NCBI GenBank assembly: GCA_964548275.1
Contig: CAZJQI010000004.1
Location: 13,149-77,148 of the forward strand
Direction: 5' to 3'
Length of the DNA stretch: 64,000 nucleotides
DNA from: an uncultured Gemmatimonadales bacterium
Lineage (GTDB): Bacteria > Gemmatimonadota > Glassbacteria > GWA2-58-10
The notes below the pieces were generated by a model, which was not told where the DNA came from, ran no database searches, and saw nothing but the letters and a program-made list of their open reading frames with translations. A program made the position numbers and the translations under genes. This document shows, in pieces, positions 16,740 to 57,141 of this stretch; within the stretch, counting starts at the first letter, position 1; every line of letters begins with the position of its first letter.

Positions 16740-17894
16740 ATGCCCCAGAACGTTTGCATACTTGGGGCCACGGGTTCTATTGGTGAGAACTGTCTCGCTG
16801 TGCTTAACGAACTGGCCCCCCGTTTCAGAGTGGTGTCTCTGGCAGCACACAGAAATGTCCACCGTCTGCTTGAGTCCGCAAGGGCGTTCGGGGCCGCCAG
16901 AATCTGTCTGGCCGATTGCAGCGTGGCCGAGGAGATCGACAGACAGAGTCTCGGCGCTATCGAACTGGGCTGCGGCCAGGAATCACTGGTCGAGCTTGCC
17001 ACAGACCCTGAGGTGGATATTGTTGTCAATGCCATGGTCGGCTCGGCTGGCCTGGCCCCCTCGGTGGCGGCACTCAAGGCAGGTAAGCGGCTCGCCCTGG
17101 CCAATAAAGAATCTCTGGTAATGGCGGGCGCACACTTGATACGGCTGGCCGGGGAGAAGCCGGGTGCCGAGATCATTCCTGTGGACAGCGAGCACAGCGC
17201 TCTTTTCCAGCTTATTGACTTGCACGAATCCCGAAGTGCCCTGGAGAAGGTTATAATTACAGCTTCCGGCGGCCCGTTTCGAGGAAGCGACAGGGCGCGG
17301 CTGGAAAAGGTCACTTTCGCCGAGAGCCTGAATCACCCAACCTGGAAGATGGGGCCGAAAATCACGATCGATTCGGCCAGCCTGGCGAACAAGGGACTGG
17401 AGATCATCGAAGCGCACTTTCTTTTCGGACTGGAGTATGAGAACATAGAGGTTCTGGTGCACCCGCAGTCCATAGTCCACGGGATGGCGGTATTCCACGA
17501 TGGCACCGTGCTGGCACATATAGGTGTTCCGGACATGCGGATTCCTATCCAATATGCGCTGACCTATCCGGATCGTGTGCAGAGCAGTATCAGGCCTCCG
17601 GATTTAGCCGCTATTGGCGAGTTGACATTCGAGTCGGTGGACGGGAAAAATTTTCCCTGCCTGGCGCTTGCTTACGAAGCAGGCAGGAAAGGGGGCGTTG
17701 CCACCGCGGTGTTCAATGCAGCTAACGAGGCTGCTGTGAAGCTTTTCAGCAAGGGCTTGATCGTCTTCACGCAGATACCCGATATAATAGAGAAGACTCT
17801 GGCCGAGGTTCGCGCAGGAGGCGAGCCCTCGCTGGAGGAGATTTTTCAGGCAGACAGTTGGGCCAGGGATTTTGCAGTGCAGCTGATTGCTTAG
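16740..17894 (+). CDS. dxr: 1-deoxy-D-xylulose 5-phosphate reductoisomerase
   Basis: NADPH-binding motif ILGATGSIGEN. DXR family with a DXP_redisom_C-type C-terminus. Confidence 0.95.
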   Translation: MPQNVCILGATGSIGENCLAVLNELAPRFRVVSLAAHRNVHRLLESARAFGAARICLADCSVAEEIDRQSLGAIELGCGQESLVELATDPEVDIVVNAMVGSAGLAPSVAALKAGKRLALANKESLVMAGAHLIRLAGEKPGAEIIPVDSEHSALFQLIDLHESRSALEKVIITASGGPFRGSDRARLEKVTFAESLNHPTWKMGPKITIDSASLANKGLEIIEAHFLFGLEYENIEVLVHPQSIVHGMAVFHDGTVLAHIGVPDMRIPIQYALTYPDRVQSSIRPPDLAAIGELTFESVDGKNFPCLALAYEAGRKGGVATAVFNAANEAAVKLFSKGLIVFTQIPDIIEKTLAEVRAGGEPSLEEIFQADSWARDFAVQLIA

Positions 17895-17963
17895 AAAAAG
17901 CCGCTGGATACCTTGAAGGGATAATCTCTGGAGAAGTTCTACCGGTGATTTAAGGAACTTCGA

Positions 17964-17992
17964 GGGCGAGGAATGCCTTGCCCTTTTTGTTT
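17964..17992 (+). terminator. Hairpin gggcgagg-aatg-ccttgccc plus T-run after dxr
   Basis: It has an 8 bp stem with one G-T wobble and the tail tttttgttt. The same core element recurs at 35079. Confidence 0.5.
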
Positions 17993-20782: not shown

Positions 20783-21002
20783 TTTCGAATTCCCTGGCTT
20801 GTCAATGGCTGGAAATGCAATTTAATTCTCTCCAGAGGCGGCAATTTCCGGATAGAAAAATCATAGCAGAGCTATAACTTCCCTATCTATTTAAGTTATA
20901 ACGGATAATTAAAATTTTACTTTAATTATTGTTTTCCCCAACAGCGAGAAATAGTGCGCAAATTGTTTGAATCCGAAGCTTATTAGAATCCGAAGCTTAT
21001 TA

Positions 21003-21036
21003 GAAAAAAAGGATTTACCGCCAAAGCGGTAAATCC
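21003..21036 (-). terminator. Rho-independent terminator of the tRNA-Met transcript
   Basis: Perfect 11 bp stem ggatttaccgc/gcggtaaatcc with loop caaa. On the minus strand it is followed by T7. Confidence 0.65.
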
Positions 21037-33720: not shown

Positions 33721-34935
33721 ATGAAGATAATTGAAACAGGCTCTGTTGATTCGGTACCGGGTTTTCGCGCTCTCGGTGTAAGCTGCGGGATCAAGCAAAG
33801 CGGTGAGCCGGACCTGGGAGTTTTGCTTTGTGAACGTCCCTGTAACGCAGCAGGTGTGTTTACCACCAACCGAGTGCAGGCTGCCCCGGTACTGGTCAGT
33901 AAAAAAATCCTGGAGCGCAGCTCCGGCCACATCCAAGGCGTTGTAGTCAACAGCGGTAACGCCAACGCCTGTACAGGCAAGCAGGGAATTCGCGACGCAG
34001 GCGGAATGGCTGCTGAAGCCGAGCGGATATTCGGACTCGAGGAGTCAACGATGCTTGTCATGTCCACCGGGCTGATCGGCAAACCGCTGCTCATGGACAG
34101 GATCAAAGCCGGGCTTCTCAAGGTTAGAGAGGGGTTCAATGCGCAGAAAGGCGGCTCGTTCGCCAGGGCGCTGATGACTACAGATACGAAAGAAAAATTT
34201 CTGGCAGTAAGATTCGATATCCAGGGAGTGCCGGTCACAATCGGTGCAGCGGCCAAGGGTTCGGGTATGATTCACCCGAACATGGCGACCATGCTCGCTT
34301 TATTTACTACGGATGCCGCGGTGAGCCCCGCTTGCCTGAATCTTGCACTCAGGCGGGTTACCGAACGCACGTTCAACATGATCAGTGTCGATGGAGACTG
34401 CAGTCCCAACGACATCGTATTTATCCTGGCATCCGCAGCCTGTGGCGCTCCCTTGATTGAGAACGAGGAAAGCCCGGGTTACAAGCCCTTTTACTCCGCT
34501 CTGCTCGCTGCTGCTACCGAACTCGCCCGGGCGATTGTTGCCGACGGCGAAGGCGCGACCAAGCTCGTGGAGATCAGGGTCAAAGGAGCCGATTCGTTCA
34601 ACTCGGCCTCAAAGGTGGCAAGAGCGGTGGCCAATTCGCCACTGGTCAAAACCGCTCTTTTCGGTGGGGATCCAAACTGGGGAAGGATAGTCTGCGCGAT
34701 TGGATACAGCGGGGTCCCGGTCGATCCGGATAAAATCGATATCTTTTTCGGAGACATTCAGGCGGTAAAGCAAGGCGCTCCTTCAGGAGTCTCAGATGAA
34801 GAGTGTGCTTCCAGACTGAAAGAGAGAGAAATAGTTCTGACAATCGGTCTCAATCAGGGGGGCTGCGAGTGCAGTTTCTGGACCTGCGATTTTTCATACG
34901 ACTATGTGCGAATCAATGCCGAATACCACACCTGA
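33721..34935 (+). CDS. argJ: Bifunctional glutamate N-acetyltransferase/amino-acid acetyltransferase ArgJ
   Basis: ArgJ family with the autoproteolysis site ATML (ATMLALFTTDA). Confidence 0.9.
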   Translation: MKIIETGSVDSVPGFRALGVSCGIKQSGEPDLGVLLCERPCNAAGVFTTNRVQAAPVLVSKKILERSSGHIQGVVVNSGNANACTGKQGIRDAGGMAAEAERIFGLEESTMLVMSTGLIGKPLLMDRIKAGLLKVREGFNAQKGGSFARALMTTDTKEKFLAVRFDIQGVPVTIGAAAKGSGMIHPNMATMLALFTTDAAVSPACLNLALRRVTERTFNMISVDGDCSPNDIVFILASAACGAPLIENEESPGYKPFYSALLAAATELARAIVADGEGATKLVEIRVKGADSFNSASKVARAVANSPLVKTALFGGDPNWGRIVCAIGYSGVPVDPDKIDIFFGDIQAVKQGAPSGVSDEECASRLKEREIVLTIGLNQGGCECSFWTCDFSYDYVRINAEYHT

Positions 34936-35078
34936 GACTTGGCGCGTCTGGGGGAATGGAACCCTTTCCACTTTTAAAAGCTTGCAAAAAAATTGATCGA
35001 TACAAATCGATCTTCTAAGTATATGAATTCATAAATAGTGTAGCGTATATTTCTAAACCAATCCACAAATTTAGAACA

Positions 35079-35150
35079 GGGCGAGGTATGCCTTGCCATG
35101 TTCGGGCGACCGGCCGGTCGCCCGGCCGGTCGCCCGGCCGGTCGCCCGAA
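35079..35150. repeat. Composite GC-rich palindromic (REP-like) element
   Basis: It begins with the hairpin core gggcgagg-tatg-ccttgcc, also found at 17964. A 20 bp perfect palindrome gggcgaccggccggtcgccc follows, then three tandem copies of the 12-mer ggccggtcgccc. The outer inverted repeat ttcgggcgacc/ggtcgcccgaa encloses the whole element. Confidence 0.6.
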
Positions 35151-35240
35151 CGGGCTCGTTCAGCGTTTCTGGAAAAAATACGTAACCGAACTTTCGAACT
35201 ATGGCACTAAGTGTCTTCCATTTTTCAGGAGATCTTATCA

Positions 35241-36314
35241 ATGGCCGCACACCGCAAATTGTTTATCCCCGGCCCGACCGAGGTAGCCCCGGAGGTACTG
35301 GCTGAACTCAGCCGGCCGATGATCGGGCACCGCTTTCCGGAGTGTTCCGAGCTGATTGCCTCGATCGTGCCGAAAGTCCAGGAAATGCTCTACACCGAGA
35401 ACATGATTTTCCTTGCTACCTGCAGCGGTACGGGCCTGATGGAGGCCGCTGTGCGCAACTGCGTGCGCGAATCCTGTGTCTCTTTTATCAACGGAGCTTT
35501 CAGCAAACGTTTCTACCAGATCGCCACCTCCAACGGCAAAAAGGCCATTCCGGTGGAGATTCCCCTGGGACACGGTTTCAACGCTGATCTTGTCGATGAG
35601 GCATTGAGCCAGCACAAGGTGGACGCCGTGACCCTGGTGCACAACGAGACTTCCAACGCTGCGATGAGCGATATTTACGGTATCGCCGAGCTGATGAAAG
35701 AAAAATATCCTGATATCAGCCTGCTGGTGGATATGGTTAGCTCGATGGGTGGTGTGAAACTCGAAATAGACAGGCTGGGAGTTGATGTGGCTCTGGCAAG
35801 CGGCCAGAAAGCCCTGGCCCTGCCGCCGGGGATCGCGGTTGCGGCAATCAGCCAGAAAGCGATGGAAAAAGCCGGCACTGTGGAAAACCGCGGCTTTTAT
35901 TTCGACTTTTTCAATTTCCAGAAAAATTACGCCAAGAACCAGACTCATATCACACCCTCGATTCCGCACCTCTACGCGATGAAAAAGCAGATGGAAATCA
36001 TTATCGAGGAAGGACTGGAAAACCGCTGGAGGCGCCATCTCGAAATGGCCGAAAGGGTTCGCGCCTGGGCCGGGGAGCATTTCAGGATTTTCACTCAGGA
36101 AGGATACCACTCGAACACGCTGACCTGCGTGGAGAATACCCGGGGCATTAATATCTCCGATTTGAACAAGAAACTCGCCGAACGCAACATGGTTATCTCC
36201 AACGGCTACGGCGAGCTCAAAAACAAGACTTTCCGTATTGCTCACATGGGAGAACTGACCATGAGCGATATTGACGAGGTTCTCGGCGCGATCGATGAGA
36301 TCCTGAGTTTTTAG
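35241..36314 (+). CDS. Class V aminotransferase (serine-pyruvate/alanine-glyoxylate/SerC-like)
   Basis: Start at MAAHRKLFIPGPTEV after an aggag RBS. Aminotran_5 fold. Substrate specificity cannot be read from the sequence. Confidence 0.8.
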   Translation: MAAHRKLFIPGPTEVAPEVLAELSRPMIGHRFPECSELIASIVPKVQEMLYTENMIFLATCSGTGLMEAAVRNCVRESCVSFINGAFSKRFYQIATSNGKKAIPVEIPLGHGFNADLVDEALSQHKVDAVTLVHNETSNAAMSDIYGIAELMKEKYPDISLLVDMVSSMGGVKLEIDRLGVDVALASGQKALALPPGIAVAAISQKAMEKAGTVENRGFYFDFFNFQKNYAKNQTHITPSIPHLYAMKKQMEIIIEEGLENRWRRHLEMAERVRAWAGEHFRIFTQEGYHSNTLTCVENTRGINISDLNKKLAERNMVISNGYGELKNKTFRIAHMGELTMSDIDEVLGAIDEILSF

Positions 36315-36322
36315 CTTGGGCA

Positions 36323-36342
36323 GGGCACGGCGCGCCGTGCCC
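36323..36342. repeat. 20 bp perfect GC-rich palindrome gggcacggcgcgccgtgccc immediately after the aminotransferase stop
   Basis: It is its own reverse complement and has no T-run. It is REP-like or a terminator-like hairpin. Confidence 0.55.
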
Positions 36343-36463
36343 TTACACAAGTGATCGTTTCTTGAACAGTTTCAATTCAACCCGGACATTGTTTCGTTTT
36401 CTACAAAAGGAAATCGATGAAATTTCAACACCCTTCTAAAGATTAAATTGATATCTGTCTGAA

Positions 36464-36485
36464 GGGGCGGCCGGCCGGTCGCCCC
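36464..36485. repeat. Near-palindrome ggggcggccggccggtcgcccc related to the 35104 element
   Basis: 21 of 22 positions are self-complementary. It shares the core ccggccggtcgccc with the 35104-35147 repeats. Confidence 0.5.
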
Positions 36486-36594
36486 TAAAGTGTTTTCATG
36501 CATATATCACAGCAGTCGAGAGATTTACAAATATTTTTGCAAAAAATCAATGTATGGTATAAAATAGATGGAATCTCCGAGGCAGGGATCACAA

Positions 36595-37410
36595 ATGATA
36601 AAAATCGAAAAGATCGGCTTTATCGGAGCCGGCAAGATGGGCTCTGCCCTTCTGGCAGGAGTCCTGAAGGCGAAAATAGTGTCGGCCGGAAAGGTCTTGA
36701 TTTCCGAGATCGACAAGGCCAGGCGCGAGGAGATCTGCAAGAAGCACAGAGTCAGGGCGGCCGACCTGGACGAGCTTGCCCGCTCGTGTGGAACAATCCT
36801 CCTCTGTGTCAAACCAAATGTCGTTGCGCCTGTTCTGAGAAAAATCCGCGAATTTGTGGGTGAAGAGAAGCTGGTAGTTTCGATTGCCGCAGGGATTACT
36901 ACCGCTAGTATCGAGACCGAACTTAAGCCAGGCGTTCCAGTAGTGCGGGCGATGCCTAATATTGCTGCAACTGTGGGTGAGTCCGCCACCGCACTGGCTG
37001 CCGGGAAAGTGGCGGGAGCAGAGCACATTGAGCTTGCCAGGAGCATTCTCGGCTCAGTCGGCAATGTGGTTGAGCTTCCAGAGAAACTTATCGATGCGGT
37101 GACAGGGCTATCCGGCAGCGGGCCGGCGTATGTTTTTCTCTTCGCCGAAGCCCTGCTGAGCGGAGCACTCAAGGTCGGCCTGCCGGGAAAAGAAGCCAGA
37201 GAGCTGGTGGTGATGACAATCAAGGGCGCGGCTGCAATGCTGGAGGCCGATAAGGGATCGCATCCGGCGGTTTTACGCGATGCAGTGACCACTCCCGGAG
37301 GGACGACTATTGCGGGTCTCCACGAGCTCGAGAGTAAGGGTTTCCGCGATGCGGTAATCAGAGCTGTCGAGGCTGCTACGGAGAGATCGCAGGAGCTTGG
37401 GAAAAGCTAG
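36595..37410 (+). CDS. proC: Pyrroline-5-carboxylate reductase
   Basis: Start at MIKIEKIGFIGAGKMG, a Rossmann GxGxxG motif. P5CR family with a dimerisation C-terminus. Confidence 0.9.
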   Translation: MIKIEKIGFIGAGKMGSALLAGVLKAKIVSAGKVLISEIDKARREEICKKHRVRAADLDELARSCGTILLCVKPNVVAPVLRKIREFVGEEKLVVSIAAGITTASIETELKPGVPVVRAMPNIAATVGESATALAAGKVAGAEHIELARSILGSVGNVVELPEKLIDAVTGLSGSGPAYVFLFAEALLSGALKVGLPGKEARELVVMTIKGAAAMLEADKGSHPAVLRDAVTTPGGTTIAGLHELESKGFRDAVIRAVEAATERSQELGKS

Positions 37411-40801: not shown

Positions 40802-41404
40802 TTAAGCCTTATCTTCGGGGCTCTTTTCCTTACCAGAGTTCTTTTCCTCAGTCGGGGGTTTTTCCTTGCTATCAGATTTTTTCTCTATATCAGCCTTTTG
40901 TTCGGTTTCGCCTTTTTTCTCGGCAGGAGTCTCTTGCTCAGCAGGAGCTTTTTCCTCGACTGGAGCTTCCGTCTGGGCTGCCGCCTTTTGCTCAGCAGGA
41001 GCCTGCTCTTTACTGACCACTTTCTCTTCAGCCGGTGTCTTTTCCTCAGTCGGGGTTTTTCCCTCGACTGGAGCTTCCGTCTGGGCTGCCGCCTTTTGCT
41101 CAGCAGGAGCCGGTTCCTTGCTAGCGGCTTTCTCTTCAACTGGAACCTGTTCCTCAACCGGAGCCTTCACCTCTTCTGCAACCCTGGTTTCGACCCGGAC
41201 TTTTTTCTTGCCTTTGGCGGCCGGGGCGGCAAGACGTTCCTCGTTCCTCACCAGAGAAACCAGTTTGCGTTGCACCCTTTTCAAACGCTTGTGAAACATG
41301 CGCAGCCTCGCCCTGTCAACTTCTTTTTCCTGAGCAAGCTGGGCTGTTTCTTCCTTGTATTTGGTAATTGTCTTTTCCAAAGTCTGCCTGGTTACCAAGT
41401 CCAC
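40802..41404 (-). CDS. Hypothetical protein with N-terminal coiled coil and Lys/Glu/Ala/Pro-rich repetitive tail
   Basis: The N-terminus is basic and helical. It carries a 36 aa tandem repeat (SKE[PQ]APAEQKAAAQTEAPVE...), encoded by a 108 bp DNA repeat. Confidence 0.5.
   Translation of the reverse strand: MDLVTRQTLEKTITKYKEETAQLAQEKEVDRARLRMFHKRLKRVQRKLVSLVRNEERLAAPAAKGKKKVRVETRVAEEVKAPVEEQVPVEEKAASKEPAPAEQKAAAQTEAPVEGKTPTEEKTPAEEKVVSKEQAPAEQKAAAQTEAPVEEKAPAEQETPAEKKGETEQKADIEKKSDSKEKPPTEEKNSGKEKSPEDKA
40950..41110. repeat. 108 bp-period tandem repeat inside the 40802-41404 coding sequence
   Basis: cctcgactggagcttccgtctgggctgccgccttttgctcagcaggagc occurs at about 40954 and again at about 41062. 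Confidence 0.6.
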
Positions 41405-41556: not shown

Positions 41557-41730
41557 AAGGCAGATTTTCGCTAAATTTTCGCCTTAAGGCTGGCAGATAG
41601 AGAGCGGCTTTATCGAGATAATAACTTTTGTGGGTGATCTGATCCCCGAAATTTAATACAACCTGCTTGATACATTGTCCGAACCTTTTGCTGAAGGAGG
41701 GATCATGTACCTGTTGCTGGAGGAGGGATC

Positions 41731-42339
41731 ATGTACCTGACCCGGCGTCAGAAAGAGATTCTCGACTTCATCGAAAATCACATCGAGAATGTCGGCTACG
41801 CGCCCAGCATCGAGGATATCTGCTCACAGTTCGGCCTGAGTTCAACCGCCACAGTGCACAAGCATCTGTCAAATCTGGAACAGAAAGGGCTTATCCGCCG
41901 CTTCCCCAACCGCAGCCGCGCGATTGAACTCTGCCGCATAGAGAGAGTTCCGTATGGCGCGGTGGTCTCTGCGCCTCTGCTGGGCCGGATAGCCGCGGGC
42001 AGGCCGATCGAGGTGGTTGAGGTGCCCGAGAGTATCGAGTTGCCGGAGAGCATGGTGGGCAAGCGGCCCACTTTCGTGCTCAAGGTTGAGGGAGACTCGA
42101 TGATTGATGAGCAGATCCGCGACGGGGACTACGTGATTATGGAGCAGAGCGCCACAGCCGAGGACGGCCAGATCGTGGTGGCCCTGATCGGTGGGGAAGA
42201 GGCCACGCTCAAGCGCTTTTACCGTGAGAAAGACGGTGTGCGTCTTCAGCCGGCCAATGTCAATATGTCACCGGTTATCCTGAAAGACGGCGAGTTCCAG
42301 ATCCAGGGCGTGGTTATCGGTGTGCTGCGCAAGTACTAG
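41731..42339 (+). CDS. lexA: LexA repressor (S24 peptidase)
   Basis: N-terminal winged HTH. The S24 domain has catalytic Ser in GDSMID. An Ala-Gly cleavage region is present (RIAAGRPI). Confidence 0.95.
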   Translation: MYLTRRQKEILDFIENHIENVGYAPSIEDICSQFGLSSTATVHKHLSNLEQKGLIRRFPNRSRAIELCRIERVPYGAVVSAPLLGRIAAGRPIEVVEVPESIELPESMVGKRPTFVLKVEGDSMIDEQIRDGDYVIMEQSATAEDGQIVVALIGGEEATLKRFYREKDGVRLQPANVNMSPVILKDGEFQIQGVVIGVLRKY

Positions 42340-56966: not shown

Positions 56967-57141
56967 ATCTTGTTGGAGTTATCGAGAGGAGGGGGCTGCA
57001 AAGCCCCCTCCTCTCACACTACTGTATGTACGGTTCCGCATGCGGCGGTTCGTGAATACGGGTTAATATTTCATCAAGCGGATAGTGCCTATCCAGTTAC
57101 AACGGTGCGTTTTCTGTTTCACTGCCTTGGGAGGAATAGCA

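Follow-up and report, generated by a model that had tools for sequence, protein, structure and literature searches.

An AT-rich spacer between argJ and a class V aminotransferase gene of an uncultured Gemmatimonadales bacterium (assembly GCA_964548275.1, contig CAZJQI010000004.1; the whole analysed stretch of 64,000 nt is henceforth termed the window) contains a compact, GC-rich island of hairpins and short tandem repeats. Both genes belong to a plus-strand string that reads argD, argJ, class V aminotransferase and proC. Named relatives of ArgJ share no more than 61% identity with it, and a faint Por_Secre_tail match in a protein nearby hints at an affiliation with the FCB group. An earlier note made from the letters alone had located the island in this spacer and had described a hairpin core (gggcgagg-tatg-ccttgcc), a perfect 20-bp palindrome, three copies of a 12-mer and an enclosing inverted repeat, which together were thought to resemble repetitive extragenic palindromes (REPs) or bacterial interspersed mosaic elements (BIMEs). 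All of these features are present within 35074–35161, far beyond chance expectation.

The island begins with a hairpin, R1, whose core GGCGAGG-TATG-CCTTGCC (35080–35097) reaches outward through its arms to GAACA...TGTTC. It includes one G.T pair, at which pairing is possible on the plus strand alone. The perfect palindrome GGGCGACCGGCCGGTCGCCC follows at 35104–35123 and overlaps an exact, head-to-tail array of the 12-mer GGCCGGTCGCCC (Tandem Repeats Finder: period 12, 3.2 copies, 100% matches), the unit of which corresponds to the loop and right arm of the palindrome. The outer inverted repeat GTTCGGGCGACC...GGTCGCCCGAAC closes the resulting structure, R2, which lies 165 nt past the argJ stop codon and 90 nt ahead of the next start codon. 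A small hairpin termed H3, which has one GAAC arm in common with R2, completes the series. RNA folding, a check proposed in the earlier note, gave -66.5 kcal/mol for 35070–35175 (R1-R2-H3), corresponding to z = -6.0 against shuffles.

H3 and three further features of the window had been outside the earlier note. A second copy of the palindrome, R4, occurs 1.3 kb downstream in the next intergenic region, with a core (36465–36484) that is identical to the R2 palindrome at 19 of 20 positions; the two copies thus bracket the aminotransferase gene. The A-to-G change in R4 leaves a G.U pair on the plus strand alone, AAAGTGTTTTC lies directly 3' of the hairpin, and the fold is predicted at -22.1 kcal/mol on the plus strand versus -17.8 on the minus strand (region z-score -3). 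The asymmetric stem positions of R1 and R4 both pair as G.U on the plus strand, whereas the minus strand would have A.C at these places. Between the aminotransferase gene and R4 lies a palindrome of another sequence type, R3, which has the same 'AGGGC...GCCCT' shape; palindromes resembling R3 adjoin the REP in two loci of other genomes (L095 and L112). The fourth feature is a twin of R1 that differs from it in the loop only (0 matches expected by chance), is terminator-like and is located 69 nt past the stop codon of the gene at 16740–17894. The R1 20-mer AGGGCGAGGWATGCCTTGCC has exactly one further copy in the window, with 0 expected by chance. In comparisons with dinucleotide shuffles, the 12-mer had 6 window matches with at most one mismatch (0.54 expected; none of the shuffles attained 6), and the 20-bp palindrome had 4 with at most three mismatches (0.01 expected; none attained 4). 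A systematic hairpin scan of the window and 8 kb of additional upstream sequence revealed no further GC-rich palindrome of the REP kind. The coordinates are collected in Table 1, and we use the form GGGCGRCCGGCCGGYCGCCC to denote the local REP-palindrome type.

Table 1. Positions in the window of the island, its related hairpins and adjoining genes.
Feature	Sequence or content	Position	Strand	Basis or remark
R1 twin	AGGGCGAGG-AATG-CCTTGCCCT (AGGGCGAGGAATGCCTTGCCCT), then TTTTTGTTT	17963–17984	+	hairpin scan, sequence match
argJ, upstream gene		33721–34935	+	NCBIfam NF003802, E = 8e-146
Block of about 192 nt	R1, R2, H3 and AT-rich flanks	roughly 35022–35213	+	alignments; boundaries approximate
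R1	GAACA-G-GGCGAGG-TATG-CCTTGCC-A-TGTTC	35074–35103	+	sequence, RNA fold
R2, REP-derived palindrome	GTTC-GGGCGACC-(GGCC-GGTCGCCC)x3-GAAC	35100–35151	no strand	sequence and family consensus
Tandem array of 12-nt unit	GGCCGGTCGCCC	35112–35147	+	unit = REP loop and right arm; 3 copies in window
H3, small hairpin	GAACG-GGCT-CGTTC (GAACGGGCTCGTTC)	35148–35161	+	sequence, folds
Class V aminotransferase gene		35241–36314	+	NCBIfam/Pfam Aminotran_5; R2 and R4 on either side
R3 palindrome	GCAG-GGCACGGCG-CGCCGTGCC-CTTAC (GCAGGGCACGGCGCGCCGTGCCCTTAC)	36320–36346	+	6 nt past aminotransferase stop
R4, second REP copy	GAAG-GGGCGGCC-GGCC-GGTCGCCC-CTAA (core GGGCGGCCGGCCGGTCGCCC)	36461–36488	+	25/28 consensus positions
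Promoter-like sequence	TTGCAA-17-TAAAAT	36537–36565	+	upstream of proC, downstream of R4

The earlier note had raised the possibility that the motif is unique to this locus, which is not the case. Apart from R4, the exact 20-mer was found at at least 120 loci among the matches listed in a scan of GTDB species representatives (one genome per species) with GGGCGRCCGGCCGGTCGCCC, and these loci belong to well over ten phyla. Judged by the labels of the metagenome-assembled genomes (MAGs), the lineages include Chloroflexota, several delta-proteobacterial or Desulfobacterota lineages, Latescibacterota, Binatia, Gemmatimonadota, Methylobacter and Nitrospira, as well as Acidobacteria, Planctomycetota, Spirochaetota, Lentisphaeria, Ignavibacteriales and others; several of the listed matches share one MAG, with several contigs per MAG, and some are located at contig ends. 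The flanks of these copies yield the family consensus GTAG-GGGCGACCGGCCGGTCGCCC-CTAC, i.e., the 28-nt perfect palindrome GTAGGGGCGACCGGCCGGTCGCCCCTAC, in which 4-nt feet enclose the 20-mer. At the listed copies, the foot reads GTAG in 144 of 262 cases, with GCAG, GTCG and GTAA as minor variants, and 63 of 131 copies have feet that are complementary throughout. By a crude gene call based on GC3, 72 of 91 copies, about 80%, occupy intergenic positions (43 tandem, 17 convergent, 12 divergent), and in many phyla the palindrome adjoins unrelated genes.

Against this family, the R2 core is identical at 20 of 20 positions and the R4 core at 19. Reduced to a single unit, R2 would form the perfect 28-nt palindrome GTTCGGGCGACCGGCCGGTCGCCCGAAC, in which all positions agree with the consensus except foot positions 3 and 4 and, symmetrically, 25 and 26. 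The R2 foot carries a compensatory double change, by which the palindrome was kept and the GTAG motif destroyed. Duplication of half a REP was also observed elsewhere: in L017:3258–3313, L031:7422–7470 and L051:7458–7510, the left arm and foot are duplicated at 18–25-nt spacing, for example as GTAGGGGCGACCGGCC-TTCCGTGCA-GTAGGGGCGACCGGCCGGTCGCCCCTAC, so that the family shows such duplications repeatedly, in registers that differ from 12 nt. In addition, the exact 28-nt palindrome occurs in 7 stretches on 6 contigs of a viral collection (IMG/VR, L206–L212), which may be genuine phages or flanks of prophage and host.

REPs are non-autonomous single-strand hairpins that are moved in trans by REP-associated tyrosine transposases (RAYTs) of the Y1/HUH type, which read the hairpin together with a 5' GTAG foot. 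In locus L080, the palindrome lies just upstream of an open reading frame (ORF) with an HLHGIV (HuH) motif, and in L105 it adjoins a fragment ending in ...WQRNDYDHAIRN...YIADNP. A tblastn search of the window and the loci with E. coli RayT returned weak leads, of which these two were upheld by an NCBIfam scan: both ORFs match NF047646, 'REP-associated tyrosine transposase' (E = 1.9e-8 and 1e-5, respectively), with scores under the curated cut-off because both are truncated. The L080 protein has 1017 homologs of ~180–196 aa, many of them with Pfam PF01797 recorded and several named RayT by their source, and the listed homologs bear NH[LIFV]H, WQ and YIxNNP-type motifs. When homologs were used as tblastn queries, RAYT fragments were detected beside or over the palindrome in six loci (L009, L057, L080, L096, L105 and L117). 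A Pfam scan of the truncated fragments gave no match and a PDB sequence search gave noise. ORFs located between paired palindromes in L036, L051, L064, L087 and L057 were considered as further candidates and turned out to be ordinary genes rather than RAYTs.

The palindrome is also found inside RAYT genes. It is encoded exactly in the variable loop of 20 of the 120 listed homologs, in three reading frames (VGATGRSPL, RGDRPVAPT and GRPAGRP), and many other listed homologs carry sister palindromes, e.g., VGAHGRAPL and VGANGRSPL. The conserved entity is therefore the DNA and not the peptide. At the DNA level, the exact 28-mer was seen inside the RAYT gene at L213:10001–10591 (NCBI GCA_040961345.1). 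The presence of one identical 28-mer across many phyla may reflect a REP that travels inside the gene. The RAYT gene P0001 is located within a type I restriction-modification operon (L213:4121–12042), with hsdR/hsdS and small ORFs on one side and hsdM on the other, an arrangement found in four assemblies.

Taken by their shape, R2 and R4 conform to the REP pattern of short (20–40 nt), GC-rich stem-loop palindromes with G-C pairs at the bottom of the stem; they are extragenic, being located between annotated plus-strand genes, and they belong to a repeated family that is associated with RAYTs in other genomes. The REP part of the earlier interpretation is thus upheld by the at least 120 loci and the RAYT association, whereas the proposed likeness to E. 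coli-type BIMEs is not. As in E. coli BIMEs, several REP-type hairpins stand in series in one intergenic region, but the island has neither alternating Y/Z orientation classes nor conserved or repeated linker motifs, R2 is symmetric, and the hairpins are of unrelated sequence types, two of which share 4-nt arms. The arrangement also differs from a REPIN, in which two inverted copies of one REP flank a short spacer and move together: the units of R2 repeat one arm in direct orientation, R1 and R2 are unlike in sequence, and R2 and R4 lie 1.3 kb apart. A scan of 34700–36800 against Rfam at E <= 10 returned nothing near a gathering score, the best matches being mir-341 (34.7 bits versus a threshold of 90) and Chloroflexi-1 (16.5 versus 80). 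An attC site was rejected as the R''/R' consensus does not fit, and a CRISPR repeat as there are no spacers. The 9-bp stem CGGGCGACC/GGTCGCCCG coincides with an arm of the inverted terminal repeat of adeno-associated virus 2, which we take to be chance.

Among described systems, the family matches the 'double-foot' REPs of TnpA-Y1 subclass 2.4. According to Quentin et al. (2018, BMC Genomics 19:475, PMC6006769), the transposases of this subclass are ~194 aa long with NH[IFV]H, WQ and YIxNNP motifs, their REPs combine a 5' GT[AG]G and a 3' C[TC]AC foot with three G-C pairs at the stem bottom, REPs are inserted between HuH and Y in the genes themselves, and hosts comprise Cyanobacteria, Bacteroidetes and various other phyla. 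The subclass corresponds to RAYT group 4 of Bertels et al. 2017, which is recorded (PMC5581495) from 17 bacterial classes with flanking 16-mers that occur only ~14 times per replicon. The window family shares with these REPs the GC-rich palindrome whose stem has three G-C pairs at its base, a core that elsewhere carries 5' GT[AG]G and 3' C[TC]AC feet, and a distribution scattered over many phyla, the published copy number per genome being low to moderate (PMC6006769, PMC5581495). The GTAG-tagged REPs of E. coli, Pseudomonas and Stenotrophomonas (SMAGs), a super-family reviewed by Di Nocera et al. (2013, BMC Genomics 14:522, PMC3733652), are likewise extragenic and mostly downstream of genes, contain stem G.T pairs that suggest a function as RNA, form clusters and coexist as several sequence types per genome. 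Their tag is, however, unpaired and located at one end, whereas the double-foot family is fully symmetric with paired feet, and the window REP sequence does not appear in the main text of that review. Altogether, the island is probably a cluster of decayed REP hairpins, in which R2, like its partner R4, derives from the double-foot family of RAYT subclass 2.4, or group 4.

The 12-mer array differs in copy number among strains, as the earlier note had suggested it could. Contigs from other metagenomes that contain the long spacer and represent near-identical strains carry 0, 1, 2 or 3 units. Three units are present in the window, JGI 3300008516, Logan SRR3085435 and Logan SRR3085416, two in ENA ERZ27251135 (L223), and one in JGI 3300009136 (L226), which has the canonical single palindrome. 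The state without units, which reads GTTCGGGCGACCGAAC, was found in Logan SRR26215678 (L003), JGI Ga0114922 (L126) and ENA ERZ25073496 (L224); two of these three records may share one sequencing project. L126 differs from the window by ~30 single-nucleotide polymorphisms (SNPs) in 5.7 kb and L226 by several further differences within the spacer, so that both are distinct strains. In L003, the array is missing on a gene haplotype identical to that of the window, and contraction may therefore be recurrent or, in that case, an artefact. Across R2, CCG recurs every 12 nt (GGGCGA-CCG-GCCGGTCGC-CCG-A), and the same microhomology can thus mediate both expansion from one to two units and loss from one to none. 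Given this periodicity and the several pairing registers, slipped-strand mispairing would add or remove units, and once two units are present, the 12-nt direct repeats and alternative hairpin registers would favour more slippage. With 3.2 copies at 100% identity and alleles of 0 to 3 units, the array qualifies as a variable-number tandem repeat (VNTR). It resembles VNTRs and contingency repeats in its perfect head-to-tail organization and its variation between strains, but, because the unit is half a palindrome, each added unit alters the hairpin geometry rather than a reading frame or promoter spacing.

Some strains have no island at all. NCBI GCA_030665985.1 and Logan SRR26080958, in which ArgJ (P0122) is 100% identical to that of the window by BLASTP, carry a short argJ–aminotransferase spacer, as do relatives with 91% and 86% ArgJ identity, in which a spacer of 109–111 nt contains no REP. 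More distant orthologous loci (aminotransferase 76–82% identical) were also devoid of a REP. The block that comprises R1, R2 and H3 is hence dispensable, and its absence from same-species strains and relatives fits an insertion rather than a conserved regulatory site. Both spacer alleles align at both ends, and the block is one contiguous extra piece in the long allele, bounded by CTAAGTA (35015–35021) and CTAAGTG (35207–35213, the block end), where the short allele contains a single CTAAACA. This configuration, in which the heptamer pair resembles a target-site duplication, would suit a reading in which R1, R2 and H3 came jointly as one transposed or recombined cassette of ~185–190 nt, similar to a miniature inverted-repeat transposable element, with the REP hairpins as passengers or internal structures. 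We regard such a joint origin as rather unlikely. No terminal inverted repeats were recognised by eye, and a BLAST search of the non-REP parts against the window and all fetched loci (about 1.5 Mb) found only chance 11–14-mers and no other copy. The rest of the spacer is also 35–40% diverged between the alleles, which renders the block boundaries, and therefore the 'duplication', uncertain, and Y1 transposition of the RAYT/IS200 type makes no target duplications. As an observation in its own right, one species thus harbours two deeply diverged spacer haplotypes of 111 nt and 269–305 nt (window 34936–35240; L225:3216–3326; L228), the shared part of which is ~35–40% diverged next to near-identical ArgJ. 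The short haplotype is almost the same as that of the relative with 91% ArgJ identity, suggesting recombination across lineages.

A second alternative holds that the hairpins are local terminators or attenuators of the argJ-aminotransferase-proC string that have no mobile ancestry and resemble REPs by convergence. Like Rho-independent terminators, they are GC-rich stems downstream of genes, and T-rich tracts follow R4, its ortholog and the R1 twin. R4 was reported as terminator-like in a terminator scan, if weakly; the orthologous site in a relative with 86% ArgJ identity (L217) reads AAAAGGGGCGGCC-TCAG-GGTCGCCTC, then TTGTTTTTT, i.e., a degenerate GC stem with a T-run; the R1 twin has the same layout; R3 directly follows a stop codon; and the G.U asymmetry favours the sense strand. 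A purely local origin is nevertheless unlikely in our view, as a consensus drawn from at least 120 loci in unrelated genomes is shared by R4 at 25 of its 28 positions and by the R2 core at all 20, an agreement far beyond what convergence could produce. R2 has GAACGGGCTCGTTCAGCG in place of a following U-tract, was not recovered in the terminator scan and belongs to the block that strains with an identical ArgJ protein lack. The ortholog in L217 implies that R4 is old, and by comparison the R1/R2 block appears to be younger or dispensable. The two readings are also compatible with each other, as REPs often act as terminators.

The allele series could further be taken to mean that the 12-mer array is a hairpin-length switch which sets argJ–aminotransferase read-through or mRNA stability, i.e., a contingency locus that arose from a domesticated REP. 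In that case, arrays of 0 to 3 units or loss of the block would give different stem stabilities, with local folds predicted to range from about -27 to about -66 kcal/mol. We know of no phenotypic switch based on such a 12-mer array and consider this role quite unlikely. It is very unlikely that the differences in unit number are sequencing or assembly artefacts at a strong GC hairpin and that only one true allele exists. In favour of an artefact, the stem has a very high stability, several Logan contigs are interrupted in or close to the element, and the junction of the alleles without units falls at the CCG microhomology, where a polymerase could skip, in L003 on a gene haplotype identical to that of the window. 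Yet all four states come from different samples and pipelines (JGI, ENA and Logan), three units were seen three times besides the window and the empty state three times, and L126 (no unit) and L226 (one unit) carry many SNPs relative to the window near the array. Moreover, the 39-nt periodic stretch contains no repeated 31-mer, and by this reasoning a de Bruijn assembler with k=31 would not be expected to collapse the array. The idea that the palindromes are operator sites of a dimeric DNA-binding regulator, suggested by two near-identical 20-bp copies that flank one gene at a distance of 1.34 kb from each other, is highly improbable, given that the same palindrome accompanies unrelated genes across many phyla, resembles REPs in its GC-richness and tendency to form hairpins, has no regulator gene adjacent to it, and is destroyed (no unit), multiplied by halves or dropped in natural alleles.

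Several observations weigh against the assignment of the island to the double-foot REPs. The GT[AG]G and C[TC]AC feet of this family are absent from R2 (GTTC...GAAC) and imperfect in R4 (GAAG...CTAA, 3/4 on each side). Searched by tblastn with E. coli RayT and, at E <= 1e-3, with a set of 40 RAYTs, the 64-kb window yielded no RAYT gene. R2 bears a tandem array of loop and one arm, and exact tandem 12-mer arrays are absent at the ~130 other copies of the palindrome; none is described in the accessible parts of Quentin et al. 2018 or Bertels et al. 2017 (PMC6006769, PMC5581495). The 64-kb window and ~8 kb of flanking sequence contain only five hairpins of this kind (two of the R2/R4 type, two of the R1 type and one of the R3 type), of which four surround a single gene, and thus give no indication of a high genome-wide copy number. 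R2 could be a local copy of R4 instead of a product of transposition, the R4 ortholog in L217 resembles a plain intrinsic terminator, and the allele calls rely on short-read assemblies across a very strong hairpin.

For a decayed REP cluster, we propose the following history. RAYT-mediated insertion would have delivered the REPs, with R4 arriving before the species split and R2 later, or as a copy of R4, possibly within the ~190-nt block. Mobility would then have been lost by foot mutations; since the feet are mutated in both R2 and R4, the local copies are probably immobile. The array would have arisen from the loop and right arm of R2 by replication slippage. The hairpins are presumably transcribed with the plus-strand amino-acid biosynthesis genes as very stable RNA stem-loops, which may act as barriers to 3'-to-5' exonucleases or as partial terminators between cistrons. 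By analogy with enterobacterial REPs, known as 3'-end barriers or terminators (PMC3733652), these hairpins, with T-runs at the R4 ortholog and the R1 twin, probably serve such a function. Any role of R2 would be modulatory at most, as a U-tract is lacking and some strains do without R2 altogether.

Other repeats and conserved sequences were observed in the window. Upstream of proC, the block AAATATTTTTGCAAAAAATCAATGTATGGTRTAAAATAGAT (window 36520–36580), in which the promoter-like sequence lies, is almost invariant relative to L217, and a further occurrence of the motif TTGCAAAAAA precedes the aminotransferase gene at 34982; this sequence is probably a promoter or operator. At lexA (41731–42339; Pfam LexA_DNA_bind and Peptidase_S24), the ribosome-binding site and start codon are duplicated as part of a 26-nt tandem repeat (41683–41739; 2.2 copies at 93% identity), which creates an upstream ATG with a short frame of 11 codons. 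A nested 18/54/108-nt tandem repeat (40859–41156) lies inside the minus-strand ORF 40802–41404, which has no Pfam match and whose product may be a repetitive protein of low complexity. In the intergenic region that separates a Peptidase_M23 gene from the enolase gene, 2.2 perfect copies of a 17-nt tandem repeat (GAATCCGAAGCTTATTA) precede an A-run and the 11-bp hairpin GGATTTACCGC-CAAA-GCGGTAAATCC (20969–21036). Two strong intergenic hairpins of unrelated sequence, ATTGGGCGCC-GGAACA-TTGGCGCCCAAT (1910–1937) and GAGAGGAGGGGGCT-GCAA-AGCCCCCTCCTCTC (56984–57015), are probably ordinary terminators.

The island thus represents a new, decayed member of the known double-foot REPs and neither a new kind of element nor a new mechanism; the stutter of half a palindrome is unusual, yet mechanistically ordinary. 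In practice, the element can serve as a strain marker, and it coincides with, or lies close to, the ends of some short-read contigs from this organism. A REP relic that had been picked by eye is hereby linked, in an uncultured bacterium from sediment, to a defined RAYT subclass; elements of this sort have hardly been catalogued in such organisms, and the alleles with 0, 1, 2 and 3 units, together with the strains that have no block, provide a clean natural example of REP decay, stutter and loss.

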